Shown here: in pieces, positions 7,196-42,339 of the stretch | How positions within the stretch are numbered: position 1 is the first letter of the stretch | Layout: every line of letters starts with the position of its first letter | DNA from: Dictyostelium discoideum | Taxonomy: Eukaryota | Assembly: GCA_000004695.1 (NCBI GenBank) | Contig: CM000151.3 | Coordinates: 576,001-640,000, forward strand | DNA length: 64,000 nt | Direction of reading: 5' to 3' | Translations under genes and position numbers: made by a program | The notes under the pieces: model-generated | Databases searched by the model: none | Told to the model about the DNA's origin: nothing | Seen by the model: only the letters and a program-made list of their open reading frames with translations

Positions 7196-7404
7196 ATGAT
7201 TAAAATATTTTTTTTTTTCATTTCAATTTTATTTTTAATAATAAATTTCAATTTTTCAAATGGAATCGTACCACCAATTGATGAATTTAATGCATTACAA
7301 AATCTAATTTTAAAGTTTAACCTCACAACGTTGGAAAATAAACCAATTACTGAAATTTGTAGTAATGATGTATCATGTAATCAAACAACTGGGTCATTTA
7401 TTAT
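7196..7404 (+). CDS. Paralog A of a tandem surface-protein family, exon 1 (signal peptide plus PPIDEFNALQNLILKFN).
   Basis: Met followed by a hydrophobic signal peptide. GTAAGT donor at 7405. It is homologous to exon 1 of paralogs B and C. Confidence 0.6.
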
Positions 7405-7476
7405 GTAAGTTTTTAAGATTTTTTATTTTATTTATTTTATTTATTTTATTTTATTTTTTTTAAATTGTGTATTAAT

Positions 7477-7521
<45 letters not shown>

Positions 7522-7522
<1 letters not shown>

Positions 7523-7740
7523 ATGGTAATAATTGGAAATAAAGAATATACACCAATTGGAGCAGAACTTATCCCATCGGATATACTTGGTTTTCCAAAT
7601 GTTTATAGATATGATTTTAGAGATTTACCAATAAGTTTTGAGTTTTTTTATTATAAAATTCAAAATGTGGTAACAATTACTTATAGAAACTTTACAGGTA
7701 TAAATGAAATAAATCAAACTTTACCAGGTTATAGAGAGAT
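7522..7740 (+). CDS. Paralog A, exon 2. It corresponds to exons 2 and 3 of paralogs B and C fused into one exon.
   Basis: AG acceptor at 7520-7521 and GTGAGT donor at 7741. It encodes EYTPIGAEL...TLPGYREM, matching EYTPIGAKI... / ...TLPDYASM of paralog C. Confidence 0.55.
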
Positions 7741-7834
7741 GTGAGTTTTTTTTTTTTTTTTTTTTTTGTGTTTTATATATTTATTTTTTGAAAAAACTAA
7801 CAGAAATTAATTGTTTTTTTATTAAAAAAAAAAG

Positions 7835-10607
7835 GTTTATAAGTTGTGATTGTCTTGATGGTTCAAATTTTAAAATGTCATATATTAATAAAAATACATC
7901 ACTTTTTCAACTTGATAAATCATATTTAAATTTAATTAATGATTCTCCAAATTTAAATAAATTATATTCATTAACATTAGGATTAAACAATCTTCCAAAT
8001 ATGTCAAATTATTATTTTAATAGTATGATTTTTTATTTTGGACCAAATTTCGATGTTAATTCATTTGGTTTAAATTATAAAACTATAAGGTCAGAGGTTA
8101 AAGAATTTAAATCATCAGATCCGGAAATGTATTTTCCCATTGAAGCTTTAGCAGATCAGGAAGTTTCATTGGTTGGAGGTTATACAATACGTTTTGATTT
8201 AAAATTTAGTCGTCCACAAGATAATAAGCTATTGAACATTTCAAATCAAAATATTCGTTTTATTACTTTTTCCAACCCTGGGAAATTTTTTAATATTGAA
8301 AGTAATTCATTACTTCAATTCCCTCTAATTCTAAACTATAATTGTAAACTTGTTGTTGAATATGGAACGATTTCTCAAACTGAACCAATTTCACAATTTG
8401 GTAATCCAAAGATTATTTCAATGAAACATTCAATTATTTCAGGTGATTTAGGTAAATATCAATTATCAAATCCTAATCAAGAAAGAATCTATGATTTTTC
8501 AGGTAATTCTATAACTGGAACAATTGATCAATCATGGTGTCATGCTATTTTACAAATTAGAGATAATAATATGACTGGTCCAATTCCATCATGTTTTTCT
8601 TGTTATTTTAATTCTCCATTAATTGATTCATCACTTGGTTCATACATTACTTTTTATGGAGCTTTCGAGGGAAACAACTTTACAAATTTATATCCCAATT
8701 TACCTTGTACAACATTTAAACCTCAAATTGAAAGACAATCTAACACAGCTTTAATTATTTACGGTAATGATATTGGTTTCAATGGAGTCTTGTATAAAAT
8801 AAATGGAACTATTAGTTGTAAAACCTATGAACCAATTGAATATGGTAAAAAATTTCTATTTACTACCAATAATAGCATTTCATTTGCCCATGTAAATTAT
8901 TTATCAATTAATTTTTTTTATCCATTTGATAAGGATTATTATTTCCCATTAATTTTTAGATCACCAATTATTGACTCTGTTTATTTTTCAAATGGTAAAA
9001 GTTTACAAGTTGATGGGTCTTACTTTTCAAGTTATTTGGGTCATGTCACACAAACAATCACTATATCAAATTATACATTTGAAATTTTTGATTCAAGTGA
9101 TTTCTTTTCAATTCAAGCAAATTCAACAAAATTAATTCCAGCTTCTTTAACAAATAAATTCGAATTATTAACTTTAACTACAAATTCAAACATTAAAAGA
9201 GTTTATGTAGATTTGGGTTCAAGAAATGATAAATTATGTAAAAATGATTGTATTGATAATGATCATGGTATTTGTAATTTAAATTTAGGTGTTTGTATAT
9301 GTTTAGATGATTTTATTGGTGATGATTGTTCACTTCCAAACTTTTTCATTACATCAGTTCAACCATCAACAACAAATGGTGGTGAAGCTATTTTCTTTGG
9401 TTCATTTTTAGAATTAACAAATAATATTTCATTAACAATTGGCGGAATAGATTGTCAAATTACATTAAATTCAATAGATACAATTAAATGTATAGCACAA
9501 CCTGGTAATGGTATTAAAACTATAATTTTAAAACAAAATGATAAAATATTCACTGGTGTTGGTATTTATAAATATATTGAATTATCAATACCATGTCCAA
9601 ATAAATGTTCAAATAATGGTATTTGTAATTCAACAACTGGAATTTGTAAATGTAAAAATGGATATACTTTATATGATTGTAGCGCATTAATTAATTTAGA
9701 TAATGGTTTAGGCAATAGTAATAATAATACAGGCGGTGGTGGTACAAATACAACAATTGACCCAGGTACAGGTTCAACAAATATTACAGATTCTCAAACT
9801 AATTTCCAAATTTATTTAAAATCATTAATTGAAGTAGATATTAATAATAATGAAGTTAAATCTTATTCATTATTAAAGAATTGGATATTTAATAAAACTG
9901 AAAATGAAATTGAACCAAATAAATATATATTAAAACAACAATTAGTAAATAATACTACTCCAAATTCAAATGGATGTATAATTACATCAACAATTGAAGA
10001 AATTAAAGATAAAAATGGTAAAGAATTTACATTTGCGGGTACATCATTCGTTGTTTCAAGTGGTTCAATTAAATTTACAATTTCAATTGCAAATTATACA
10101 TATCAAAGTAATTTAAATACTTTAAAATTAGAATTAATATCATCAGTTGATAAAATCGATAAAATTAATAATTGTAATTCAAAAGACACAGAAATCGATA
10201 CAACCAATGTAAATGATATATCAACATTTAATTATATCAAAATTTCAAAAAATAATAAAATTTTCTCTGCTAGATTCATTAATAAAGTATTGTCCGATGG
10301 TAGATCAACATTTTTTACAACAAGCGCAAGAAATGATTCAAATTCAATTATTGTATCATTAAATTTACCTCATTGTATTAATGAATGTTTAATTGATCCA
10401 GATTTTTCAGTTTTACTTACAAATGATTTCAAATCTGAATGTGGTGATGATGATTCATCTCGAAAATGGTTTTTACCTGTTGTAGTAGTTGTACCAGTTG
10501 TAGGTGTTGCTTTTATGATAATCATAATGTTTTTGATTTACAAAAGAAGTACAACACTAAAAATTATGTTACATGCTACAAAATTAAAAAAATTTAATCA
10601 CAAATAA
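7835..10607 (+). CDS. Paralog A, large exon 3. Type-I membrane protein with LRR-like repeats, an IPT/TIG domain, an EGF-like module, one TM helix and a short cytoplasmic tail. It is tgr-like.
   Basis: LRR-like repeats include YDFSGNSITGTIDQSWC and NNMTGPIPSCF. IPT/TIG is ITSVQPSTTNGGEAIFFG...CIAQPGNGIKT. EGF-like module is CPNKCSNNGICNSTTGICKCKNGYTLYDCS. TM is FLPVVVVVPVVGVAFMIIIMFLIY, followed by a KR-rich tail. Confidence 0.65.
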
Positions 10608-10726
10608 AATAAAAAAAATAATATTAATAAAAAAATCTTGGGCATTTATAATATTTTTATAAAATTAGTTGGTGTTGAAAACAATATAAATAATTATAAG
10701 TATCTTAATTATTATAATAATTGAAG

Positions 10727-10749
10727 TTAAAAACCACGTGGTTGTTTAA
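10727..10749. promoter_or_regulatory. Palindromic element TTAAAAACCACGTGGTTGTTTAA (CACGTG core), about 250 bp upstream of paralog B.
   Basis: 12-bp perfect palindrome AACCACGTGGTT (10732-10743) in AT-rich intergenic DNA. Confidence 0.35.
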
Positions 10750-10997
10750 TTTTTTATTTTTGTTGGGTTTTTTTTTTTTTTTAAAAATAAAAAATATCCA
10801 AAAAAAAATAATTTTGGAAACAAAAGAAAAAAAAAAAATTAAAAAATAATCAGAAAAGATATTTTATTTTTTTTAATTTTTTTTTTTTTTTTTTTTGATG
10901 CCAACATAGTTTTTGGGTTTACACCAAAAAAAAAAAAATTACCATTTTTTTTTTTATTTTTTTTTTTTGCGATAAACGAAACGATAGAATCAAAAAA

Positions 10998-11200
10998 ATG
11001 AATTCAATTTTTTTAATTTTTTTTTTAATTTCTATCAATTTTGGAATTTTCTCAACACTATCACCACCACAAAATGAATTAAATGCATTATATAGCCTAA
11101 TAAACAAATTTAACATTAAAATGTTTGGTGATAATCCATCACCAGAATATTTTTGTGTTGTTTATTATTGTTCCCCAATAACAGGTTCAATAATTGGACC
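10998..11200 (+). CDS. Paralog B, exon 1 (signal peptide plus PPQNELNALYSLINKFN).
   Basis: GTAGGT donor at 11201. Homologous to exon 1 of paralogs A and C. Confidence 0.55.
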
Positions 11201-11287
11201 GTAGGTCTCTCTATTTTTTTTTTTTTTTTTTTTTTTTTATTATTTCTGGTTATTAAAATTTTTTTTTTTTTTTTTTTTTTTAAATAG

Positions 11288-11374
11288 GTTTAAATTAATT
11301 GGGGATCCAAGTAATCAATCTAATGAAGTGATGACTCACTCTGATTTAAAGAACTTTACAAATATATCTTCAAT
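11288..11374 (+). CDS. Paralog B, exon 2.
   Basis: AG acceptor at 11286-11287 and GTATGT donor at 11375. It encodes ...SDLKNFTNISSM, matching ...SDLKQFTSVSSM of paralog C. Confidence 0.45.
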
Positions 11375-11418
11375 GTATGTAAAAATAAATTAAAAAAGTT
11401 AGGGCCAATAAACTGATT

Positions 11419-11475
<57 letters not shown>

Positions 11476-11478
11476 AAG

Positions 11479-11607
11479 GGAATTAGTTTATTTTAAAATT
11501 GATGAAGAATTATTATATATTAAATTAAATAATGTTGAAAAGGTTGGTTTTATTTTTGTAAATGGGGTAAAAGAAATAAATAGAACCTTGGCAGATTATA
11601 AAGAGAT
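11479..11607 (+). CDS. Paralog B, exon 3.
   Basis: GTAAGT donor at 11608. It encodes ...INRTLADYKEM, matching ...INKTLPDYASM of paralog C. The acceptor choice is uncertain; 11479 or 11487 are both possible. Confidence 0.4.
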
Positions 11608-11676
11608 GTAAGTAAAATTTATTTATTTATTTATTTATTTATTTTTTTATTTTTCAAATCCTAATACTTTTATTTT

Positions 11677-11720
<44 letters not shown>

Positions 11721-11732
11721 TAATAATATTAG

Positions 11733-14511
11733 AGTAATTGATAGTAGAGATTTAGAAAATAGTACATTTAAACTATCATATATTAATAATGATACTGCAA
11801 AATTTCAAATAAAGAATTCATTTTTGGAATTTGAAAATGATTTACCAGATTTACCATCATTAACAAATTTATTGTTGGAAATTAGAAGTTTACCAAATAT
11901 TTCTCAAATAAATCCTTACCAAGTTTCGTTTAGATTTAGTCCAGATTTTGATATTGGATCATTAAAATTAAATTTTCAAACTTTAAAATCACAATTAATA
12001 ACTATCTTAGATTCGAATGATTCAAATTTAATATATCCATGTGATTTCATAAAAGATCAATATGTTGGACAAAATGAAAAGAGTACTATTAATTTTGGCC
12101 TTAAATTTTTACCACCAATTGATGGTCATGTTATTGATCTATCAAATAAGAATATTGAATCTATATCATATACCAATGCTGGTAATGCTTTTAATATTGT
12201 TATAAATTCAAAATCAACATTCCCTATTTTGGTTGGTTATTATGTTAATGTTGCCCTTTTAAAAGGTAATATATCACAAACTATACCACTTTCACAATTT
12301 GGTAGAGGTGAAAGTATTTCAGTAATAGATTCAAAAATCAGTGGTGATTTGGATACTAATTATAGACCAACTGATGGAGTTGTAAGAAGACTTTATGATT
12401 TTTCAAATAATTTCATTACAGGTACCATTGATCCATCATGGTGTAATGCTCAATTAATAATTAGAAATAATAAAATGAGTGGTGAAGTTCCATCATGCTA
12501 TTCATGTTATTTTAACTATCCAATGCAATTAGTTAATAATCCAGATATTAAAGTTTTTTATGATGGATTTGAAGGAAATAATTTTACAAATTTAGAACAA
12601 AATCTTAAATGTACAACATTTGCTCCACAAATTGATAAAGATTCAGAAACCAGTTTAATTATTTCTGGTACTGATATTGGTTTCTATGGTGATAAGTTTT
12701 TAATACAAGATACTATGATATGTACAACATATCAAGTAATCGAATTTGGTAAAAGTTATAAATGTGGAATTCATCCAAGTTTTTCTTTTAAAGATTTAAA
12801 CTATATTAAAATTAATTTTAAATTCCCATTTGATAAAGATTATTATTTTTCATTAATTAATAGAGTACCAATGATAACATCAGTAACTTACTCAAATAAT
12901 AATTTACAAATTAATGGATCTTACTTTTCAAGTTATTTAGGTCATGTTCCACAAACAATTAGTTTATCAACTTTTACATTTGATATCTTAAATTCAAGTG
13001 ATTTCTTTTCTATCCAAGCAATATCAACTTTTAAAGTAGTTCCAAATCCAGGCTTCAATCTATTAACATTGAAAACAAATTCAAAGATTTCAAGAGTTTT
13101 CATTAATATGGCATCATTAGCAAATGATAAGTTATGTAAAAATAATTGCACAGATGACGACCATGGTGTTTGTAATTTATATTTAGGTACTTGTGTTTGT
13201 AATAATAATTATGAAGGTGATGATTGTTCAATTCCACAATTTTATATTACATCAGTTCAACCATCAACAACAAATGGTGGTGAAGCTATTTTCTTTGGTT
13301 TATATGGATATGACCTTAGTAATATTTCATTAACTATTAGTGGAATAGATTGTCCAATTACATTCAATTCATCAGATACAATTAAATGTATAGCACCACC
13401 TGGTAATGGTATTAAAACTGTAATTTTAAAACAAAATATTAAAATATTCACTGGTATTGGCATTTATAAATATATTGAATTATCAATACCATGTCCAAAT
13501 AAATGTTCAAATAATGGTATTTGTAATTCGACAACTGGAATTTGTAAATGTAAAAATGGATATACTTTATATGATTGTAGCGCATTATTAAATACAGATA
13601 TTGGTTTAGGCAATAATAATAACAATAATAATAATAATGGTGGTACAAATACAACAATTGACCCAGGTACAGGTTCAACAAATATTACAGATTCTCAAAC
13701 TAATTTCCAAATTTATTTAAAATCATTAATTGAAGTAGATATTAATAATAATGAAGTTAAATCTTATTCATTATTAAAGAATTGGATATTTAATAAAACT
13801 GAAAATGAAATTGAACCGAATAAATACATATTAAAACAACAATTAGTAAATAATACTTCTACAACTTCAAATGGATGTATAATTACATCAACAATTGAAG
13901 AAATTAAAGATAAAAATGGTAAAGAATTTACATTTGCGGGTACATCATTCGTTGTTTCAAGTGGTTCAATTAAATTCACAATTTCAATTGCAAATTATAC
14001 ATATCAAAGTAATTTAAATACTTTAAAATTAGAATTAATATCATCAGTTGATAAAATCGATAAAATTAATAATTGTAATTCAAAAGACACAGAAATCGAT
14101 ACAACCAATGTAAATGATATATCAACATTTAATTATATCAAAATTTCCAAGAATAAAAATATTTTCTCTGGTAGATTCATAAATAAAGTATTATCTGATG
14201 GAAGATCAACATTTTTTACAACAAGCGCAAGAAATGACTCAAATTCAATTATTGTGTCATTAAATTTACCACATTGTATTAATGAATGTTTAATTGATCC
14301 AGATTTTTCAGTTTTACTTTCAAATGATTTCAAATCTGAATGTGGTGATGATGATTCATCTCGAAAATGGTTTTTACCTGTTGTAGTAGTTGTACCAGTT
14401 GTTGGTTTTGCTCTTATTTTAATTATACTTTTAATAATTTATAAAAAAAGTACAACATTTAAAATAATACTGCACGCCACAAAATTAAAAAAATTAAAAA
14501 ATAATAAATAA
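11733..14511 (+). CDS. Paralog B, large exon 4. LRR-like repeats, IPT/TIG, EGF, TM; tgr-like surface protein.
   Basis: AG acceptor at 11731-11732, in frame with ORF 11824..14511. The domain order is the same as in paralog A. The C-terminal roughly 420 aa are almost identical to paralogs A and C. Confidence 0.65.
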
Positions 14512-14622
14512 ATATTTCATCATTTATATTATTTTTTATTTTTATTATATTTTTTTCTTATGATTTTATTACAAAGTTTAAGAATTAAGAATCTTTTTTT
14601 TTTTAATAAAATAATAATATTA

Positions 14623-17019
14623 TCAATTAAATTTATATTTAATTAATTTTTCATTTGAAAAGAATTTAGAAATCTTGATTGCACCTCTTTGAAGTGAAAA
14701 AAGTAAAAAAGATTTTAATTCTTGGTTACTGAATATTCCACCATCTGATTTTTCCTTTAAAATGAAATGTAAATTTTGATTAATGTATTCAAAAATTTGT
14801 AATTTTGAATTTGATGTAATATACTCCATAAATGAATTAACCAAAACTTTAATTAAAAATCTTTGATCTTGGGCAGAATTGGATAATGAAGAATCACTGT
14901 GATACTTTTCGATAATTGTTAAAAACCAATTTAAAAATTTAAAATTATTAATTTCATATAAATAGGGAGTGAATTGGTTAACATCGTTTAATAAGAGTCT
15001 TAATCTTTTAATATAAACATCATAATCCTTTTCTTTACTATTATAATATTTATTAACACTGCTGTTGTTGTTGTTATTGAAATCAAATCTATCGATTGCA
15101 ATGAGTAAATGATATTGATATATTTTTGGATTCAAAGAGAATAAACCATCACCATTTTTCAATTCATCATTATAATTTGTATACACCCAATCTATAAATT
15201 TAAAAAACTCATTTGGATAAGAGGATTCCACGATGTGTACTATTTGGTCCATTGGTTGCTTCACAAAAATATTTGCATTAATTACCAAATCTCTTAATGT
15301 TTCATATCATATTAAAAGTTTATATGATAATCCTGAAGTAGTGTATAAATGGAATGACCATTCAAACCCTAATTTATCATTATCGTAGAGTTTTGGATTA
15401 GAACCAAAATGATGTACAAAATCAGCATAATTTTTATTTAAATTCCAAATAATTTATTCGATCTCCAAAGTATCCATAAACTATAAAGCTAATAAGACTA
15501 CTACCACCACCACCACTATTTCTACAACTTGACGGATTTACTGATTTTGATTTATAAAATAATGATTCAAAATGTTTTAATAATTCTAAATTTTTATAAA
15601 ATGTACTGATGTAATTATCATAAACAATATCTTTAAAGTAATTAGATTGATTGTAAAATAAAAATTCTAACACCTCTATTGATTCGATATAATAGGTTGG
15701 TGGAAGTAATAATTTGTCTAAAGTTATTTGTAGATGATTACCAACTTTATTTGAATAATATTTCACCAACTCCGTATCATTATGAATTACAAGCATACAC
15801 AAGAAATAATAACAACAACAACTCTGAAATTCAAGGTCAGGTTGTTTAATTATTCTTTTAACTATTTCATCAATGAATTTAATCTTTTTCTCTTTATTAA
15901 AACAATGTGAAAATAAAATTTTAAATTCTTCATCAGTTGTTTTACCATTATTAAATTGAATAATATTTGGTAATAAATTTTGAAAACCCTGTTTATATCC
16001 ATTTGTTTCATATGATTCTAAAATTTCATAAATTCCTAATCTAACCGTAATTTCAAGTAAATCACAAGAAGGATATATAGTTTTATAATGACCATCATTG
16101 GATTCTTCATGATAATAACAGAAATATAAAAAATTTGATATTTCATGACCAAATATTGAATGATTTAATTTTAACAGTTTCTTTATAAAATTTTTAATTT
16201 CTTCATTATTATTGAAATTTATTGGATCATTTAATAATGATTTTAAATTAACTTTATTAATTTTCTTTGTGAAATTATCAATTTCTTCAATTGTTACAAT
16301 TGGTTTTTCTTCTTCTTCTTTTGGTGGTGTTTTTAATTTTAAAATCAATATTGCAGTGTTGACTAATGCTTTTAATGTTGATTTTTCATTAATGTGATAG
16401 AATTTCGAATATTCTCCTTTTGTAGTGCAATTAATTAATAATTGATAATATTGATTTCTATCATAATTATGATCATGAGCAATGTAATTTAAATAACATA
16501 ATAACCCTTTGAAAAAATTATTTTCTTGATTTATTTGGCAACTACATCTTGAACAGAAATATTTAAAATCACTATAATTTTTATCTAATAATAAAAATGA
16601 GTTTACTGAATTTAATTCTACAACTAGATATTTAATGAATTTATTTGATCCATTAATAATTGAATGCAAAAGATCTGTTTTTGTTGGTACATAGTTGAAT
16701 TCGTTTACAAATAATTTAAAATTTTTAATTTCTTTGATTCAATTAATGCATACACTACATCTTGTGATGAATTGTAATAATCATTCTCTATATTAAAAAA
16801 GTTTCTATAGAATCTATAATCGTCATGAATAATTGTTGAAAATAGTTTCACTAAATCATCTACATCTAAAGTACAACTATTAGAAAATTGATGTGAATCG
16901 AATTGTAAATATCTACAATTTCTATAAACTTTTTCTTTTAATATACTAAATTGATTTGAATTGATAAGATCTTTAATTGACGATATTGAATCATAACTCG
17001 ATGAGAATTGCTTATCCAT
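14623..17019 (-). CDS. Hypothetical Dictyostelium-specific protein locus. Three collinear minus-strand ORFs of 104, 411 and 221 aa make up one gene, either with very short introns or disrupted (possible pseudogene).
   Basis: ORFs 16705..17019, 15434..16669 and 14623..15288 all lie on the minus strand. The 16670-16704 gap can be read as a 34-nt GTAAAC...AG intron in phase. The 15289-15433 gap contains an in-frame TGA and a +1 frame change. No recognisable domain. Confidence 0.35.
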
Positions 17020-17474
17020 AAATGAGAATATCTTTTTATAAATTACTTTATTTCTAAATAATTTCCAAAATAATTTTTCAGTTATTATTCATTGTTGTGT
17101 TATAATTCCCCAAAATAAATAAAAATTAAAAAAAAAAAAAAATTTCTAAGATATTTTAAAAAAAATTTTAACACTAAAATAAAAAAAAAAAAAATTACAT
17201 TTTAATATCCCATCATTTTCTAATCTGCAAAAATGAAAAAATAACATTAAAATATAAAAACAAAAAGAATTTTTTTTTTTTTTTTTTTTTTTTATTATTA
17301 TTTTTATTTATTAAAATTATATATTTCATATTTATCATAATCTTCACCAATCACTAGCACTCATATATACCTTCACCAATAATAATAATAATAATATTAA
17401 TAATATTATAAAGGTGGTTGGGTGTTGAAAAGTAATTTTATGCGGCGCTGGTAGTACCAAAAGATATTTCGGTT

Positions 17475-17505
<31 letters not shown>

Positions 17506-17525
17506 GTCAAAAATACGAAAATACA

Positions 17526-17553
17526 AAAAACCACCGTTTGAAAAGTGGTTTTT
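17526..17553. promoter_or_regulatory. Inverted repeat AAAACCAC-N10-GTGGTTTT about 110 bp upstream of paralog C. It is related to the element upstream of paralog B.
   Basis: AAAAACCACCGTTTGAAAAGTGGTTTTTG, with an adjacent TGACGT. Confidence 0.35.
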
Positions 17554-17662
17554 GTGACGTACAATTTTAGTTTTTTATTTTTTTGATATTTTTTTTTTTT
17601 AAAATTTGTGCTTGTATTTTTTTTATTTTCACTTTTTTTATTTTTTATTGGTAGTGGAAAAA

Positions 17663-17856
17663 ATGATACTATATTATTTATTTATCTTCTTTTCTTTTCT
17701 TTGTTTTTTTTCATTTGGGATTATTCCTCCTGAGAATGAACTTCTTGCTTTAAATAATATTGTACAAAAGTTTAATCTTTCAATTGGTAATCAACCAAAC
17801 CCTGATTATTGTTCAATTTTTATCTGTAGTCAAACAAATGGATCACTTATAGATAC
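17663..17856 (+). CDS. Paralog C, exon 1 (signal peptide plus PPENELLALNNIVQKFN).
   Basis: ATG at 17663. The upstream Met at 17606 given by the ORF track is less likely. GTTTGT donor at 17857. Confidence 0.5.
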
Positions 17857-17910
17857 GTTTGTATTCAAAAATAAATTCTAATTATACATTTCTAAAAATA
17901 AAATTCTAAT

Positions 17911-17943
<33 letters not shown>

Positions 17944-17944
17944 G

Positions 17945-18037
17945 TCTTTATTTATTAGCTAATTCTATTGAATACACACCAATTGGTGCAAAGATCGCTG
18001 TATCAGATTTAAAACAATTTACAAGTGTTTCTTCAAT
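17945..18037 (+). CDS. Paralog C, exon 2.
   Basis: AG acceptor at 17943-17944 and GTAAAA donor at 18038. Confidence 0.45.
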
Positions 18038-18055
18038 GTAAAAAACAAAAATTAA

Positions 18056-18118
<63 letters not shown>
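18056..18118. repeat. (AAT)n microsatellite of about 20 units in an intron of paralog C.
   Basis: Read directly from the sequence. Confidence 0.9.
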
Positions 18119-18168
18119 TATAAACTTTTTACTTATTATTTTTTTATTTTTTTTATTTTTTTTTTCAG

Positions 18169-18297
18169 ATTTTTAAATGGATTTGAAATTGAATATGAAT
18201 TTATTTATCACAAATTCGAAAATTGTCAAACCCTTTATTATATTGAAACTAGGGGAGCAATGGTGATAAATAAAACGTTACCCGATTATGCATCAAT
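18169..18297 (+). CDS. Paralog C, exon 3.
   Basis: AG acceptor at 18167-18168 and GTAAGT donor at 18298. The preceding intron contains an (AAT)n tract of about 20 units. Confidence 0.45.
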
Positions 18298-18394
18298 GTA
18301 AGTTTTTGATTTTATTTTTTATTTTTTGTTTTTTTTATTTTTTTATTAAATTAATAATATGTAATATATATTTTATAAATGTAAAAATTATTAG

Positions 18395-21179
18395 AAATAT
18401 TGATTGTAAAGGATTAGAAGGTACAGAATTTAAACTATCTTATATTAGCTCAAAAACACATAGTTTCAATATATATGGAGGGAACGTAAACTTTATAACT
18501 GATGTTCCAAAGCCAACATTTTTTCAAAATTTACGTTTAAAAACAAAAAACATACCAGATTTAAAAAAAATTGTATTTGAAAATTTAATTATAAATATTG
18601 ATAAAGATTTCAATACCAGTTCATTATCAGCGTATTATAATACAATTGGAGCGAAATCGACTTCACTATTAAATGATGATAGAAATAATGGACCAAATTT
18701 ACCAAGTGAATTTTTAGGTGATAGATGGGTTTCAAATGATAAATATAGGGACAATTTAGATGTGAATGGTTTTTTAGCTCCAATTAATAATGAGCAAATT
18801 GATTTAACAGAATTGAAGTATTCATTATTAGATTTTAGAAAAGCAGGTCAATTATTCAACATTCAACAAAATTCAAAAAATGTATTCCCAATTAAAACTG
18901 GAAACAGTACAACATACTTGAAATTCCATAATGGAAATATTTCTCAAATTTACCCACTTTCCCAATTTGGAAAAGCTTCATTTATCTCTGTAGTAAATTC
19001 AAGTATTACTGGTGATTTAGGCCCATATGAGCCAAATAATGGATTTCCTACAAGACTTTATGATTTTACTAATAATGCTATAACTGGAACAATTGATCAA
19101 TCATGGTGTAACTCTGTATTGATAGTTAAAAACAATAGGATGAATGGTACAATTCCATCCTGTTTTACATGTTATTTTGATTTTCCAATAATGCTAGTAG
19201 ATAATCCAAGTGCCAGTACTATTTATGAAGCATTTCAAGGAAATAGCTTTGATAATTTAAATACAAATATTAAATGTACAACTTTTGCTCCACAAATTGA
19301 AAAAATTCGAGATAAGGCTCTACATATTTTTGGTAATGATATTGGTTTCGATAGTACTTTCTATAAAATAGATGATATTGGAATATGTAGTTCCTATAAT
19401 ACTATCGAATTTGGTAAAAGCTATGAATGTATAAGTAATAATTATTCATTTAAAGATTTAAAATATATTAAATTTAATTTTAAATATCCATTTGATAAGG
19501 ATTATTATTTCCCATTAATTAAAAGATCACCAATTATTAGCTCTGTACATTTTTTAAATAATAACAATTTACAAGTAAATGGTTCTTATTTTTCAAGTTA
19601 TTTAGGTCATGTTTCTCAAACTATTACTATTTCAAATTTAATATTTGAAATTTTAGATTCAAGTGATTTCTTTACAATTCAAGCAACTCCAATTCAAACA
19701 ATTCCAATTGAAAAACTTGAATACCCTGAAAATACAAATACTTTTGATTTATTAACTTTAAATACAAATTCAAAGATTACAAGAGTTTACATTAATCCAT
19801 CTTCAATTAATGATAAAATATGTAAAAATGATTGTACTGATAATGATCATGGTATTTGTAATTTATATTTAGGTGTTTGTGTTTGTTTAAATGATTTTAT
19901 TGGTGATGATTGTTCGAATTCAAAATTTTTCATTACATCAGTTCAACCATCAACAACAAATGGTGGTGAAGCTATTTTCTTTGGTTCATTTTTAGAATCA
20001 ATCAATACTATTTCATTAACAATTGGTGGAATAGATTGTCCAATTACATTCAATTCATCAGATACAATTAAATGTACAGCACAACCTGGTAATGGTATTA
20101 AAACTGTAATTTTAAAACAAAATGATAAAATATTCACTGGTATTGGCATTTATAAATATATTGAATTATCAATACCATGTCCAAATAAATGTTCAAATAA
20201 TGGTATTTGTAATTCAACAACTGGAATTTGTAAATGTAATAATGGATATACTTTATATGATTGTAGCGCATTATTAAATACAGATAATGGTTCAGGTGGT
20301 AATAATAACAATGGCGGTACAAATACAACAATTGACCCAGGTACAGGTTCAACAAATATTACAGATTCTCAAACTCACTTTCAAATTTATTTAAAATCAT
20401 TAATTGAAGTAGATATTAATAATAATGAAGTTAAATCTTATTCATTATTAAAGAATTGGATATTTAATAAAACTGAAAATGAAATTGAACCAAATAAATA
20501 TATATTAAAACAACAATTAGTAAATAATACTGCTCCAAATTCAAATGGATGTATAATTACATCAACAATTGAAGAAATTAAAGATAAAAATGGTAAAGAA
20601 TTTACATTTGCGGGTACATCATTCGTTGTTTCAAGTGGTTCAATTAAATTTACAATTTCAATTGCAAATTATACATATCAAAGTAATTTAAATACTTTAA
20701 AATTAGAATTAATGTCATCAGTTGATAAAATCGATAAAATTAATAATTGTAATTCAAAAGACACAGAAATCGATACAACCAATGTAAATGATATATCAAC
20801 ATTTAATTATATCAAAATTTCAAAAAATAATAAAATTTTCTCTGGTAGATTCATAAATAAAGTATTATCTGATGGAAGATCAACATTTTTTACAACAAGC
20901 GCAAGAAACGATTCAAATTCAATTATTGTATCATTAAATTTACCACATTGTATAAACGAATGTTTAATTGATCCAGATTTTTCAGTTTTACTTTCAAATG
21001 ATTTCAAATCTGAATGTGGTGATTCATCTCGAAAATGGTTTTTACCTGTTGTTATAGTTGTACCTGTTTTGGGCGCAACTATACTTTTTATAGTTTTCTT
21101 TATACTCTATAAGAAAAGTACTACACTTAAAATTATGTTGCACGCTGCAAAATTAAAAAAATTAAATACCAATAAATAA
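18395..21179 (+). CDS. Paralog C, large exon 4. LRR-like repeats, IPT/TIG, EGF, TM; tgr-like surface protein.
   Basis: AG acceptor at 18393-18394, in frame with ORF 18288..21179. The ORF track's N-terminus runs through intron sequence. Confidence 0.65.
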
Positions 21180-21227: not shown

Positions 21228-21472
21228 TTAAACTTTATTTAAAGTATAACCTGTTCTAACGACATTTGGTGTGTAAGCACGTGAACAAGTCTTACACCAC
21301 CAACGAAATTTATCATGTTTCCATGCAGGTGCCAACCCACATCTAGTACAATTTGGTATTTGTTGTAATGAGTCAGATTGATTATTTAAACAATTTTGGT
21401 TATTTTGATTTGTAATAATGGTATTTTGTGAATAATTATTATTATTAGTAGTATTATTATTAATATTATTAT

Positions 21473-21509
<37 letters not shown>

Positions 21510-21510
21510 A

Positions 21511-21595
<85 letters not shown>

Positions 21596-22494
21596 TATTA
21601 TTATTATTATGAATATTTAAAAGGGTGTGATTATTACCATTATTATTTGTTTGATTGTGGGCTCTATTTGAATTCATTTGGGCGATATTGAATTCACTAT
21701 CGGTAGCTCGTTTATATATTCTATTTTCGATTGGTATGAATGCTTTATTACAATTACGACAGTAGTAACGTTTTTTATCATGTTTCCAACTGGCAACTCT
21801 ATTACAATATGCACAATTTGGTAATTCATTTACTACATTTGATGTTTGGGAATTTGGTGACGTTGGTGTTGGAGATGTTGGTGTTGAATTATCACTATTA
21901 CTATTATTATCATTATCACTATGATTACTATTATTAACAATATTATTATTGTTATTATTAATATTGTTACTATTACTATTATGGTTTATTTTATTATTTT
22001 TATTATTATTTACAAGGTTATTAAAACCAGAAGAAGCTAATTTAATTTCACCATTTTTATTTAAAGTACTTCTGGTAATTATTGACTCTAAGACAATTTT
22101 TGCATCTTTCATTGAGATATTGGATGGTAATGTACCTCCTAATCTTCTAATTTCGGAACAAATTTCTGGAAATGTTAATTTACAAATATCTTCAACTTTA
22201 AAGTTGGAAATTTCAGGAACTGATTGATTATTATTTTTATTATTAATTGGATTTGGATTTGGATTTGGGTTTGGATTTGGTGTATTATTACTACTGTTAT
22301 TATTGTTATTATTAATGGTATTTATATTTTGATTATTTGAAAAATCATTATTAATTGTATTGTTAAAATTATTATTATTATTATTATTATTATTGTTATT
22401 AGTATTATTATTATTATTATTATTTTGGTGATTATTTTTATTAATATTTTGGTTGTAATTGGCATTCATATTTTTGAAATTACTATTAATAATT

Positions 22495-22529
<35 letters not shown>

Positions 22530-22957
22530 TAAATTATTTATTGAAATCGATTGTTGATTGTATTGAGTTTTTGGTTGAATAATATTTTGAATTTGTGGTT
22601 GATTAGATTTGGAGTGTAGTGGTGGTGAAAATTGTGAATTGTTTACAAGTTGAGGTGAACTTAATGGTTGAAGTGATTGTGGAAGAGGTAGAGGTGGTGG
22701 TGAATGTTGTTTATGATAATAAACATTCTGATAATGATATAATGGAGGACTATATGAATGTTGTAATTGATGTTGTTGTTGAATTTCTGGTGATTGAGGA
22801 ATTTGTTGTAAATTATTATTATTATTATCAATTTCATCAATATGGTGGTTATTATGATGATAATTATGATGATGATGATGATGTTGTTGATTATGATTAT
22901 GATGATGATGATTATGATGATATTGATGATGGTTATATGTATAAATTGGATGTTGAT

Positions 22958-22989
<32 letters not shown>

Positions 22990-23171
22990 CTATTAATGTT
23001 AATTTGATTACGAAGGTCGTTAGATTTATTCAAATTTTTATTATTGTTAAAAACCCAATTTGAATTATCGTCGTCATCGCCAATATCATTATTATCATTT
23101 AATAAAAAATCAATTCTTTGTTTTTTAAATGATCTATTATAACTATTAATATCACTTAAAAGCTCCTCCAT
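21228..23171 (-). CDS. N/H/Q-rich nuclear-type protein with two CX2CX14CX2C zinc-ribbon-like motifs.
   Basis: Single 647-aa ORF. The two motifs are CAYCNRVASWKHDKKRYYCRNC and CTRCGLAPAWKHDKFRWWCKTC. It also has long poly-N, poly-H and PNPNPN tracts. Confidence 0.6.
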
Positions 23172-24191
23172 TTTTTTTTTTTTTATTTATTTTATTTATT
23201 TGCAAAAAAATTTATTTATTTTATTTATTTTTATTTTATTTATTTATATTTTTTTTTTTTTTTTGTATTTAAATTTTATTTTTATTATTTTTATTAATCG
23301 TTTTTGATTGAGTTTAAAAATAAAACAAAATAAAAATAAAACAGAGATTGATTTATAAAAAAGGAAATTTTTATTTTATTTTTTTTTTTTTTTTTTTTTT
23401 TTGTTTACAAAATCGATTTTTAAAAATAATTATAAAAGAAGAAAGTGGGGGAAGTAAAAAAAAAAAAAAAAAATAAAAAAAAATTTGTTTAATGATTTTG
23501 AAAAAATAAAAATTATACAAAAAGGAACGGATTATAGTGTAGTTTAATATTTGTATTGGAAGACAATAATTAAAAAAAAAATATAATAATTTAATTAAAA
23601 AAAAATGATAATAATAATAATAATGATAATAACCACACAAACACAAAATTGCTCTACAATTTATTTTATATATCTGTATATTATTTTTATAAATTAATAT
23701 CTATATATAAATTTATATTATTTGTTCTATTTATTGCTATTAAATATTTATTTTAAATTTTATTTTTATTTTTAACTTTTATTTATTTATTTTTTTTTTT
23801 TTTTTTTTTTTTAATTTATAAATAAAATTTTTTTGGATAGCAAATTGTTTAAAAAAAAAATATATAAAAAAATATAAAAATAATAGTATGGCAACTATTA
23901 ATTTAATAAATGGTGGTGGTGGATGGTGGTAGTGTGAGTTGAAAAGGGGGGGGTGTGTGAATGTCAATAATGGAAAAAGAAATGTGATTCCAAAATTTTG
24001 TTGTTTTTATGTTGTTATTGTTGCTGTTTTGAAATGAGAGTAAAAATTTACTTTTATATTAATAGTTTATTTTTATATCAAATATATTTGGTTGAGCAAT
24101 AAAAAAAAAATAAAATAAAATAAAAATAATTAAAATAAAATATTGAAGAGAAAGAATGAGGGGTATAGTCTAGTTTTTTAATAGCATCCAA

Positions 24192-24242
<51 letters not shown>

Positions 24243-24752
24243 AAAAAAAAATAAAATATTGTATGTGAGGGTGTTGGTTTGTGTCAATAAAAAAAAAATT
24301 TGTGGTTGACATCTCACACAACAACTACATGCTAACATAAAAATATGGCACCATTTAAAATAATAATATTAAAAAAAAAAAATAAAAAAATAATAAAAAT
24401 AAAATAAAATTTGGTAAGTGCAATAGAGTGGGCTTGGAAGAAGGTGTAATTTTTTTTTTTTTTTTTTTTGAGTGGTTTCGAAATTTGGGGTTGGTTGAGT
24501 GTTGGTTATATATTAAATGGGTGTGTTTTTATTTTTTTTTTCTTTTTTTTTTTTTTTTTTTTTGTTTTTTGGTAGATATATGCTCGTTCTAAATTTTTAT
24601 AGTAATTTTCAAATGTGTGGGTTGTAGAAGGTATTATTAACACAGTTGGTATTATTAAAGATAAAAATAATTTTTATTTAACTCGACCACCCCACAATCT
24701 ACTACCATTGTGAATTGTTCTTTTCTATTATTATAAATTTTTTTTTATTAAT

Positions 24753-24783
24753 GTGGGGTCTTAATTTTAAAATGCCTCCCCAC
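24753..24783 (+). ncRNA. Candidate very small pol III-type RNA: 6-bp GC stem hairpin plus T10, preceded by a DUSE-like motif.
   Basis: GTGGGG-N19-CCCCAC (24753-24783) is followed by T10 (24784-24793). CCCACAA is at 24691-24697, 62 nt upstream. Confidence 0.25.
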
Positions 24784-25250
24784 TTTTTTTTTTTATCTCA
24801 ATTATATCTAATTTTAATTTCGATCACACCTCTCTGGGGTTAAAAAAAAAAAAAAATAGAAAAAAAAAAAAAAAAAAAAAAATCAATAAAAAAAAAAAAA
24901 AAAAAAAAAAAAATCAAAAACCAAAAATAAAAAAAAAAAAATAAAAACAAAAACACCCATTTTATGTAAAAAATTAATAAAATTGTAAAAATAGGATATT
25001 TATTCCCAAATTAATACACATTTTTTTTTTTTTAATATTTTATTTTTATTATTTAAAATTTTTTTTTTTTTTTTTTTTTTTAGATTTTGAACATTATTAA
25101 ATAATAATAATAATAATTATACTATTTTTTTTTTGTGCTTTTGAATTGGAGAAAAAAGAAAAAAAAAAAAAAAAAACCTATTAATAAAATATTCGAGATG
25201 TGATTTTTTTAAGAAAAAAAAAAAAACCAAAAATAAAAAATAAAGGAAAA

Positions 25251-26458
25251 TTAAAAATAACTAACTAATAATAAAAATTTTAATACATACAATACGAAAG
25301 TACCGGATTTAGCCTTCACTGATCCAGTTGAAGAAGATTTTTTCTTTGTTCCTTGGAAATCGGTATTGAAAAAGTTTTGTTGTTGATTTGGATTATTTGA
25401 ATTTGTTTGCTGTATAGTTGAAACTTGTGAATAATCAAATGAGACAAATTGTTGTTGTTGTTGTTGTGGTTGTTGTGGTTGTTGGGATGGTTGAATTGGT
25501 TGTTGTTGAGATGGTTGTTGTTGTAATGTTTGTTTAGATTGTTTTTTAGAAACAACGCCGCTAGTTGTTGTAGTTATAGTAGTTGATGATGATGATGATG
25601 ATGCTAATGATTGAGTTTGTTGTTGAATTTGTTGAGGTATTGATTGTATTTGAGATTTATTAGATTGAGTTGATGTATTTAATTGTGGCGATGGTTGTTG
25701 TGGTTGAGATAATGTTGATGTTGTTGTTGTTGTTGCTGTTGCTGATGATGCTGGTTGTTGTTGTAATTGTTGTGAAACTGGTTTAAAAGAATCAGCAGAT
25801 TGTTCATTATTAATCCAACCAATTTCTTTCAAGAATGAAAAAGTATCAGTGACAGAAGCATTTTCATCTTTTTTAGATTTTGGTGGATTATTAGTTGAAT
25901 CTAATAAAGATGATGGTGAAGTTGATAGTGAAGTAGTTGCAGAAATTGATGAATTTTCTTTTAACTTTTTCTTTTCTTTATTTCTTCTTCTATTCATATT
26001 TGATAATTGATAAATTTCTTGCATACTCTTTGGAACTTGATTATTATTTAAATTTGAACTACTTGTATTTGCAGTGGTGGTCGTGGTGGTTGTAGTTGTT
26101 GAATTAGAAGTTGATGTTGAATCATTTGAATGTTTAGAATCTTTTTCGTCATCACTTTCATCATCAATATCTTCATCCTCCTCATCATCTTCGTCATCAT
26201 CTTTATTATTATTATTATTGGTACTTTCATCATCGTCATCTTCTTCGTCATCATCATCATCGTCGTCGTCGTCATCACTTTCCTCATCACCATTTGAAGC
26301 CCCTGTTCCACCTCCTCCACCACCTGTATTACCTGATCTTCTTGAAGATTTTGAAGATTTTGAAGATTTATCATCATCATCATAATCCATTTCATCATTA
26401 TCATCATTTCCACTTACACCACCTGTAATTTCACTATCTTGATTATTATCACCATCGC

Positions 26459-42266: not shown

Positions 42267-42339
42267 GCCCGTTTAGCAAAGTTGGAATTGCGGCAGCCTT
42301 CTAAGCTGCAGGTCGTGGGATCGAGACCCACAATGGGTG
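42267..42339 (+). tRNA. tRNA-Arg, anticodon UCU.
   Basis: Cloverleaf folds by hand. Acceptor GCCCGTT/AATGGGT, D stem GCAA/TTGC, anticodon stem GCAGC/GCTGC, loop CTTCTAA, T stem GTGGG/CCCAC, discriminator G. A T9 terminator follows directly. Confidence 0.8.

Follow-up and report, generated by a model that had tools for sequence, protein, structure and literature searches.

A probable case of domain-restricted gene conversion in a tandem triplet of ComC-like genes of Dictyostelium discoideum

The ComC-like gene triplet

We analysed a stretch of 64,000 nucleotides from chromosome 2 of Dictyostelium discoideum (contig CM000151.3, positions 576,001 to 640,000; hereafter the window, with a G+C content of ~22%), in which three tandem genes on the same strand, here called A, B and C, encode ComC-like type I membrane proteins. 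The boundaries proposed for the three genes in the initial annotation of this stretch proved correct in splice models built on GT/AG sites and reading frame (Table 1). The protein of gene A matches exactly the deposited sequence KAM9951495.1 (cluster of DDB_G0271634) and that of gene C matches exactly XP_645584.1 / EAL71683.1 (DDB_G0271638). For the 1065-residue model of gene B no identical protein was present in the collection searched; the B models of two other D. discoideum-lineage strains have 1024–1025 residues. The deposited names of the A, B and C paralogs are only 'hypothetical protein' or 'EGF-like domain-containing protein', and a literature search found no paper that names DDB_G0271634/6/8 or reports concerted evolution in the ComC-like family, nor any expression, mutant phenotype or ligand data on the three genes. 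The triplet thus adds three uncharacterized ComC-like genes of interest for Dictyostelium biology.

All four ComC-specific Pfam domains are present in each protein, with E-values of 1e-24 to 1e-114 overall. LRR_ComC (PF24141), which extends over residues 87–388 in B and C, is matched at profile positions 1–288 of 288 (E-values 2.4e-40 to 5.1e-38, 132–140 bits versus a cut-off of 27); the two ComC beta-sandwiches (PF24142 and PF24143) score 84–95 and 90–93 bits against a cut-off of 27; and the membrane-adjacent ComC_SSD (PF22933) covers its full 222-position profile with E-values of 5.5e-112 to 7.4e-114. The Pfam layout of gene C is the same as in A, and B likewise carries the full LRR_ComC and all ComC domains. 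The EGF_2 score is 26.9–28.1 bits in B and C and 19.7–22.4 bits in A (cut-off 22.1), and the single TIG match in each protein is below the gathering score of 20.9 (16.2, 20.0–20.3 and 20.4–20.6 bits). A hydrophobic N-terminus and a hydrophobic helix (WFLPVVVVVPVVG...), followed by a Lys-rich cytoplasmic tail of 21 residues, were read from the three translations, no dedicated predictor being used. Of the domains named in the initial annotation, LRR and EGF are therefore borne out by Pfam, and the signal peptide, transmembrane (TM) helix and tail are visible in the translations, whereas the IPT/TIG domain stays sub-threshold.

From these matches, the predicted domain order is signal peptide, ComC LRR, two beta-sandwiches, an EGF-like module, a TIG-like domain, a second EGF-like module, a supersandwich, TM helix and short tail. 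The TIG-like segment lies at residues 648–712. The same annotation had called the genes 'tgr-like', a label at odds with four ComC-specific domains and one sub-threshold TIG match: judged by domain content, A, B and C are old tandem paralogs within the Dictyostelium ComC family and not Tgr proteins.

The AX4 model of DDB_G0271634 has 996 residues and leaves the first 50–70 residues of the 1066-residue model unmatched. The AX4 annotation probably lacks the 5' exons, because the 1066-residue model equals the newer deposited protein and includes the whole LRR_ComC profile. Gene A has three exons and genes B and C have four, the N-terminal LRR intron of B and C being absent from A (7522–7740 versus 11288–11607 and 17945–18297), pointing to an intron loss or gain after duplication. 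Two T homopolymers, 52 nucleotides (11420–11471) and 47 nucleotides (11668–11714) long, lie in introns of gene B.

A mosaic of divergence and near-identity

The identity among the three genes was profiled in two ways, with a 100-nucleotide sliding window and with a codon-based sliding proportion of synonymous differences (pS). Nucleotide identity is ~50% at the 5' end, 60–85% at ~8400–9400 and 94–100% at ~9480–10480; it is ~70% in the last 125 nucleotides of the coding sequence and falls to background beyond the stop codon. At the protein level, the three genes are 38–40% identical over residues 1–500, 62–72% over residues 501–672, 93–94% over residues 673–1025 and 62–67% over the TM helix and tail, with 32–38% in the upstream exons. 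The strong N-terminal divergence described in the initial annotation is thus real, although its figure of 40–50% was too high. Similarly, the last ~1.26 kb of coding sequence had been given as 95–100% identical in all three genes; over those coordinates the identity is 91.4–92.6%, and values of 94.6–95.3% apply to a refined block of ~1.06 kb (Table 1). Many 100-nucleotide windows within this block are 97–100% identical, and the longest exact runs are 180–181 nucleotides long. A 52-mer that had been quoted as the core of a near-identical stretch matches A (9783) and B (13684) exactly but differs from C (20358) at three positions.

Pairwise alignment and two-breakpoint likelihood fits showed that the pattern is a true mosaic, well outside what chance would give, and not a uniform identity, with mismatches of 3–4% inside the block versus 33–36% outside it and a doubled log-likelihood difference (2ΔlnL) of 383–453. 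The fitted blocks are 9423–10500 / 13321–14401 for A–B, 13324–14383 / 20010–21051 for B–C and 9225–10482 / 19809–21051 for A–C, so that the length of about 1.26 kb holds for the A/C pair only, and the 5' start, for which a single set of coordinates had been given, is stepped and pair-specific. The 3' edge lies 105–125 nucleotides upstream of the stop codon, in the first codons of the TM helix, rather than at the stop codon itself, where a sharp boundary had been placed; in the TM helix and tail, pS between paralogs is back at 0.4–0.6. In gene A, the block spans the C-terminal part of the TIG-like domain, EGF_2, an N/G/T-rich linker, the whole ComC_SSD and the juxtamembrane stalk. A dip in identity at 9681–9778 is caused by indels of the AAT/GGT-type linker, and the edges of the block fall on loops that are hypervariable or rich in indels and on the diverged TM region.

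Table 1. Genes, homogenised segments and gene A domains of the ComC-like triplet (window positions unless residues are indicated)
Feature	Position	Strand	Description	Basis
Gene A (DDB_G0271634), ComC-like type I membrane protein	7196..10607	+	Exons 7196–7404, 7522–7740, 7835–10607; 1066 residues	
Gene B (presumably DDB_G0271636), ComC-like	10998..14511	+	Exons 10998–11200, 11288–11374, 11479–11607, 11733–14511; 1065 residues	
Gene C (DDB_G0271638), ComC-like	17663..21179	+	Exons 17663–17856, 17945–18037, 18169–18297, 18395–21179; 1066 residues	
Homogenised block, gene A	9423..10481	+	Residues ~673–1025; A–B tract continues to ~10500	Sliding identity, pS, distances, breakpoint fits
Homogenised block, gene B	13321..14382	+		Sliding pS, within-species versus ortholog distances, breakpoint fits
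Homogenised block, gene C	20007..21050	+		Sliding pS, within-species versus ortholog distances, breakpoint fits
A/C-only 5' extension, A side	9225..9422	+	EGF-like module 1 and start of TIG-like domain; B excluded	
A/C-only 5' extension, C side	19809..20006	+		Breakpoint fits and distances
Gene-specific TM helix and 21-residue K-rich tail	A 10482..10607, B 14383–14511, C 21051–21179	+	Outside the block in D. discoideum	
AAT/GGT-type low-complexity linker	9690..9736	+	Asn/Gly-rich; within the block	Site list and alignment
Gene A, LRR_ComC	residues 90–389			Pfam
Gene A, Beta-sand_ComC_1st	residues 434–513			Pfam
Gene A, Beta-sand_ComC_2nd	residues 520–604			Pfam
Gene A, EGF_2	residues 730–754			Pfam
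Gene A, ComC_SSD	residues 779–1003			Pfam

Synonymous sites and comparison among species

The syntenic loci of five genomes were compared: those of the window strain, of two further D. discoideum-lineage assemblies, of one D. cf. discoideum and of one D. citrinum. In all the loci of the other four genomes the order is TruD gene, A, B, C. In each of the five genomes, the synonymous divergence (dS) between paralogs is 0.56–0.84 in the N-terminal part of the last exon versus 0.03–0.12 in the block, a 7- to 20-fold drop for which constraint at the protein level is not sufficient. The N-terminal values are near saturation and equal across genomes.

Over the 480 aligned codons of the N-terminal part, the sequences group strictly by ortholog; paralog p-distances are ~0.35 in every genome and ortholog distances range from 0.04 to 0.27. 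Bootstrapped neighbour-joining trees of this part recover the ortholog clades A, B and C at 100% each. In the trees of the block, D. citrinum, D. cf. discoideum and D. discoideum form clades with 100% bootstrap support and ortholog clades have 0%. The three block copies of D. citrinum are separated from each other by distances of 0.016–0.029 versus 0.08–0.10 to other genomes, and those of D. cf. discoideum by 0.015–0.026 versus 0.05–0.07 to D. discoideum. Ortholog grouping returns in the tree of the TM helix and tail (bootstrap values of 100% for the C orthologs, and 99% and 100% for the A and B copies of D. discoideum). Window-by-window distances put the zone of concerted evolution at A 9423–10481 in all three species. 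In the A/C-only extension, the within-species A–C distance is 0.025–0.071, the orthologs of the window strain or D. cf. discoideum differ from those of D. citrinum by 0.14–0.16, and the A–B and B–C distances are 0.18–0.21 in every genome.

Could purifying selection alone, including possible effects of codon usage or mRNA structure, have kept the block uniform in the absence of any exchange of DNA? An exhaustive HMMER scan with the block found 589 representative clusters at E ≤ 1e-3, belonging to Dictyostelium species in every case checked by name. DDB_G0270708, the closest unlinked paralog found in D. discoideum, shares 65–67% identity with the triplet over the block and 32% over the N-terminal part, so the block is the most conserved segment even there, and the ratio of nonsynonymous to synonymous divergence (ω) is also lowest in it. 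However, this 65–67% gives the level attained by constraint alone, and it points to near-identity within the tandem triplet only, with the caveat that the representative library used for the scan merges relatives that are more than 50% identical. The drop in paralog dS, the species clades at 100% bootstrap and the distances of 0.08–0.10 between orthologous blocks of different species versus 0.015–0.03 between paralogous blocks of the same species all contradict this explanation: as orthologous blocks are more distant than paralogous ones, constraint cannot be their source. We consider selection without DNA exchange highly improbable.

More distant relatives extend the pattern. At the same locus, D. 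firmibasis, whose divergence from D. discoideum is estimated at 50–100 million years (PMC12745789), has two copies whose amino acids differ by 50% over the N-terminal part and by 4% over the block; the N-terminal part of one copy is B-like, and in this species the tail has been homogenised too. D. dimigraforme has one ComC-like copy at the syntenic site. Judging from these comparisons, homogenisation is seen to have recurred independently in at least four lineages, the duplicates themselves being older.

The shifts in copy number over longer times, from one in D. dimigraforme to two in D. firmibasis and three in the discoideum and citrinum clades, would agree with recent independent duplications in each species followed by very fast N-terminal divergence. 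Yet the N-terminal parts, TM helices with tails, gene order and flanks are all orthologous, the A, B and C clades have 100% bootstrap support, and the dS between paralogs in the N-terminal part approaches saturation, with equal values in every genome. A related objection, that paralogous reads were merged during assembly, meets with blocks that are not identical and whose differences are structured. Moreover, the mosaic is found in both Sanger-era and recent assemblies, seven independent ones in all, which argues against assembly collapse. Neither duplication nor artefact has any appreciable likelihood as the source of the pattern.

Gene conversion as the probable mechanism

The reading that we favour, with a probability of about 0.87, is that an internal patch of ~1.06 kb has been homogenised by repeated, lineage-specific, non-crossover gene conversion among the three ComC paralogs while the parts on either side evolve separately. 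The initial annotation had suggested gene conversion or concerted evolution limited to the membrane-proximal extracellular part, and this suggestion is sustained by homogenisation at synonymous sites, by block clades that follow species and by runs of odd-one-out sites. A runs test on the last of these gave 25 runs within the block against an expected 37.4 +/- 3.5 (P=0.0004), and such clustering points to several short tracts. Intergenic DNA and flanks are colinear between strains, and all five genomes from the clades of discoideum and citrinum have three copies; orthology on both sides of the block together with the constant copy number argues for conversion of a patch and not for unequal crossing-over. 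Codons 472–541 have been homogenised between A and C only, in every species, and the pair-specific breakpoints are repeated across three species. Homogenisation of A with B extends over the TM helix in D. citrinum and D. cf. discoideum, and not in D. discoideum.

Under this model, homologous-recombination repair would use a neighbouring paralog as the template, and repeated ectopic copying without crossover would maintain the patch. The membrane-proximal extracellular part, from the middle of the TIG-like domain to the juxtamembrane stalk, thus evolves in concert within each genome. Separate orthologous lineages persist in the N-terminal half with its LRR and beta-sandwiches, in the TM helix and tail, in the introns and in the flanks. 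Tract ends would be set by the loss of homology, which fits homology-limited extension of heteroduplex DNA. Constraint on the protein is also strongest in the patch (ω of 0.1–0.3), and constraint and conversion may reinforce one another.

Several points weigh against this reading. G+C content at third codon positions (GC3) is not raised in the block (0.05–0.10 versus 0.08–0.15 in the N-terminal part, in 15 of 15 sequences), so the GC-biased signature that has been used as support in vertebrate cases is absent. Within the D. discoideum lineage, the A copies of the three genomes are monophyletic in the block (100%), and a search at sites diagnostic in the two other genomes revealed, since the split of these three genomes, only scattered short switches of single or paired sites and no clear long tracts. 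Whole-block replacement thus appears to be infrequent. Selection, instead of the limits of homology, could account for the conserved boundary positions. Our dS and ω values, calculated by the method of Nei and Gojobori (NG86) with Jukes–Cantor (JC) correction, are rough estimates at a G+C content of 22%; one to three genomes were sampled per species; and conversion is deduced from sequence comparison, no event having been directly seen.

Between two wild D. discoideum-lineage genomes, the block of gene B (16121–17210 in the numbering of their own loci) differs by 2.1% and its N-terminal part (13974–16120) by 0.75%. This excess fits interlocus conversion feeding allelic variation into the block, although the numbers are small.

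Selection and polymorphism

Between orthologs, ω is 0.33–0.68 in the N-terminal part and 0.09–0.30 in the block, and it rises to 0.84–0.92 in the first 120 codons of the last exon, which encode LRR sequence, without exceeding 1. The membrane-distal half had been said to diversify. Its fast evolution is evident and diversifying selection on it is possible, whereas values of ω above 1, which would mark it, were not found.

The initial annotation had further seen in the triplet the pattern of a polymorphic self/non-self recognition locus. On this account, A, B and C would resemble the Tgr system, with balancing or diversifying selection acting on the ligand-binding half and concerted evolution elsewhere. 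The nearly neutral LRR end between close species (ω as above) would suit such a role, as would a family that is large and, as far as the named matches show, specific to Dictyostelium. The comC gene itself is developmental, with an aggregation phenotype (PMC2873529, PMC4931340), and tgrB paralogs also undergo interlocus conversion (bioRxiv 10.1101/2025.10.22.684067). However, the domain content of A, B and C is not that of Tgr proteins, their orthologs are one-to-one and syntenic across species with N-terminal parts that never intermingle, and no window-wide ω above 1 is consistent across the three genes. Polymorphism argues in the same direction, as divergence in the triplet is on a par with or below that of its flanking genes. 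Compared with the two other genomes of the D. discoideum lineage, the window strain has a dS of 0.07–0.10 in A, B and C and of ~0.10 in flanking genes, and substitutions between the two wild genomes amount to 0.75–2.1% versus 0.5–2.0% in the flanks, in a comparison that covers three lineages only and is a weak test. By contrast, tgrB1 and tgrC1 are extreme polymorphism outliers against a genome mean nucleotide diversity of 0.003 (bioRxiv 10.1101/2025.10.22.684067). A second allorecognition locus, or hyperpolymorphism of the allorecognition type, is therefore not supported by the sequences compared here, and we regard a Tgr-like role for the triplet as quite unlikely.

The gene A 'alleles' of different strains are 93% identical as proteins; we considered hyperpolymorphism as an explanation and rejected it, since the flanking genes show the same synonymous divergence. 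The other D. discoideum-lineage assemblies are probably the diverged isolates of PMC12745789.

The supersandwich module

The AlphaFold2 model of the block, based on an alignment of 83 family members, is an all-beta supersandwich with a predicted local distance difference test (pLDDT) score of 85; an earlier model of A 9216–10604 with a 9-sequence alignment reached a pLDDT of 36 and was discarded. According to the model, the homogenised module folds as a galactose-mutarotase-like supersandwich and is closest to the luminal domain of GLMP. A sequence search of the PDB gave a marginal EGF-like match only. GLMP and the block module share 8–9% sequence identity, so that their likeness is one of fold and does not imply homology; GLMP is lysosomal and has no LRR, EGF or TIG modules. 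GLMP crosses the membrane once and serves the transporter MFSD1 as a tightly bound accessory subunit (PMC11252000, PMC6819133). By analogy, the supersandwich could be a membrane-proximal docking or sugar-binding unit common to the three receptors. More tentatively still, A, B and C may be developmental cell-surface receptors for adhesion or signalling, in which variable LRR ends would confer differing binding specificities and the common supersandwich would serve as the docking or carbohydrate-binding unit next to the membrane.

The fold bears on the question of why the tracts end where they do. Converted tracts might be kept because the supersandwiches of all three proteins must fit one shared partner, either a membrane protein in cis or a glycan, with selection for gene-specific functions purging conversions that extend to the LRR half or to the TM helix and tail. 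Such a selected constant region would refine the explanation by conversion, not replace it, and we see it as possible though less likely than not. The same pair-specific boundaries occur in D. discoideum, D. cf. discoideum and D. citrinum despite their separate homogenisation, the block is under purifying selection (ω of 0.09–0.30), the TM helix and tail are conserved among orthologs and distinct among paralogs, and in GLMP, the closest solved fold, the luminal supersandwich of a single-pass protein sits on a polytopic partner, MFSD1 (PMC11252000, PMC6819133). On the other hand, tracts that end at the loss of homology would be expected to give the same pattern, as the edges are hypervariable or indel-rich segments. 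The 3' limit is also not strict, given the A–B tract through the TM helix in D. citrinum and D. cf. discoideum and the homogenised tail in D. firmibasis, and the partner is only putative, with a likeness to GLMP that is confined to the fold.

An extended version of this idea, which we regard as speculative, depicts the triplet as a 'variable head, constant stalk' set in which three LRR heads stand on a co-evolving GLMP-like module that fits a single membrane partner or glycan, selection, and not homology alone, having held the tract limits for the 50–100 million years since D. firmibasis split off. If true, it would give the protocadherin arrangement a counterpart outside the metazoans and link the ComC family in mechanistic terms to cell–cell communication in Dictyostelium.

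Comparison with known systems

The closest evolutionary analogue of the gene conversion proposed here is the regional gene conversion in the protocadherin clusters of teleosts. In fugu and zebrafish, domains EC1–EC3 are diverged and orthologous, whereas the 3' part of the ectodomain has been homogenised lineage by lineage (PMC1852091). Both systems consist of tandem paralogs that encode type I membrane proteins of the adhesion type with diverged distal ectodomains, and in both the membrane-proximal 3' coding part has been homogenised within species by repeated, lineage-specific conversion, the argument resting on identity at synonymous sites and on a breakpoint inside the ectodomain. They differ in fold (cadherin repeats in fish; LRR, beta-sandwich and supersandwich here), in the amoebozoan host and in the number of genes, which is only three. 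In D. discoideum, moreover, the TM helix and tail lie outside the tract and there are no shared constant exons, and GC3 is raised in the fish tracts but not in the ComC-like block.

Within Dictyostelium, A, B and C agree with the ComC family (PF24141, PF24142, PF24143 and PF22933) in having all four domains in the same order, far above thresholds, together with a signal peptide and a TM helix; this likeness was established through Pfam profiles and not by direct alignment to the comC sequence. The comC product is a secreted or transmembrane EGF protein restricted to group 4 dictyostelids (PMC4931340), and aggregation is aberrant in the mutant (PMC2873529). With the tgr family the triplet shares its restriction to Dictyostelium, single-pass proteins resembling surface glycoproteins and the arrangement in tandem clusters. 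However, repeated IPT/Ig E-set domains are the defining feature of Tgr proteins (bioRxiv 10.1101/2025.10.22.684067), whereas A, B and C, compared by domain content, are built of ComC domains with one sub-threshold TIG-like segment. Unlike tgrB1 and tgrC1, they are not polymorphism outliers, and unlike the tgrBC locus, which is structurally unstable (PMC12745789), the triplet keeps its synteny and one-to-one orthology throughout the clades of discoideum and citrinum. Our literature search on comC and lagC returned nothing. Kibler et al. in 2003 reportedly placed comC in one genetic pathway with lagC/tgrC1.

The triplet is a new and well-resolved example of a known process and not a new kind of system. 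It offers a clean and phylogenetically dated case of domain-restricted concerted evolution in a protist surface-receptor family, with the genes that donate and receive, the tract limits and the lineages defined. Its modular evolution flags the parts that are likely to bind in a gene-specific manner (the LRR and beta-sandwiches, and the TM helix and tail) versus the shared supersandwich module. It also carries a practical warning: trees and ortholog calls based on the C-terminal half will mislead, and short-read variant calls in the block will cross-map.

Neighbouring sequence

A gene of ~890 residues lies on the minus strand between B and C (14623–17019, with open reading frames (ORFs) at 14623–15288, 15434–16669 and 16705–17019). 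The window strain and both other genomes of the D. discoideum lineage have it; D. cf. discoideum and D. citrinum lack it at this site, and their three ComC-like genes follow one another directly. The gene has no Pfam match and no similarity to other loci or to the rest of the window. It appears from this distribution to be a lineage-specific insertion. We considered and rejected a relationship to the FNIP-repeat genes found between the two D. firmibasis copies, there being no similarity to other loci.

In D. firmibasis, two FNIP-repeat ORFs with identical N-termini (14595–16382 and 18534–19859 of its own locus) lie between the ComC-like genes, and this pair points to a larger segmental duplication in that species. 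The deposited models of 1655 and 1532 residues, which join these ORFs to the ComC-like genes, are probably annotation fusions. In the ComC-like gene of D. dimigraforme (10660–12267 of its own locus), the long ORF is broken at 12267 even though a model of 958 residues has been deposited; the break could be due to an extra intron, a frameshift or an assembly error.

Downstream of the triplet, GC skew is strongly positive (0.36–0.45) over 4 kb of the window (22001–26000). This stretch overlaps the 5' part of an Asn/His-rich gene (21228–23171, minus strand), which has no Pfam match, and long A and T homopolymer tracts downstream. The sole tRNA gene of the window is a tRNA-Arg(TCT) at 42267–42339 on the plus strand.

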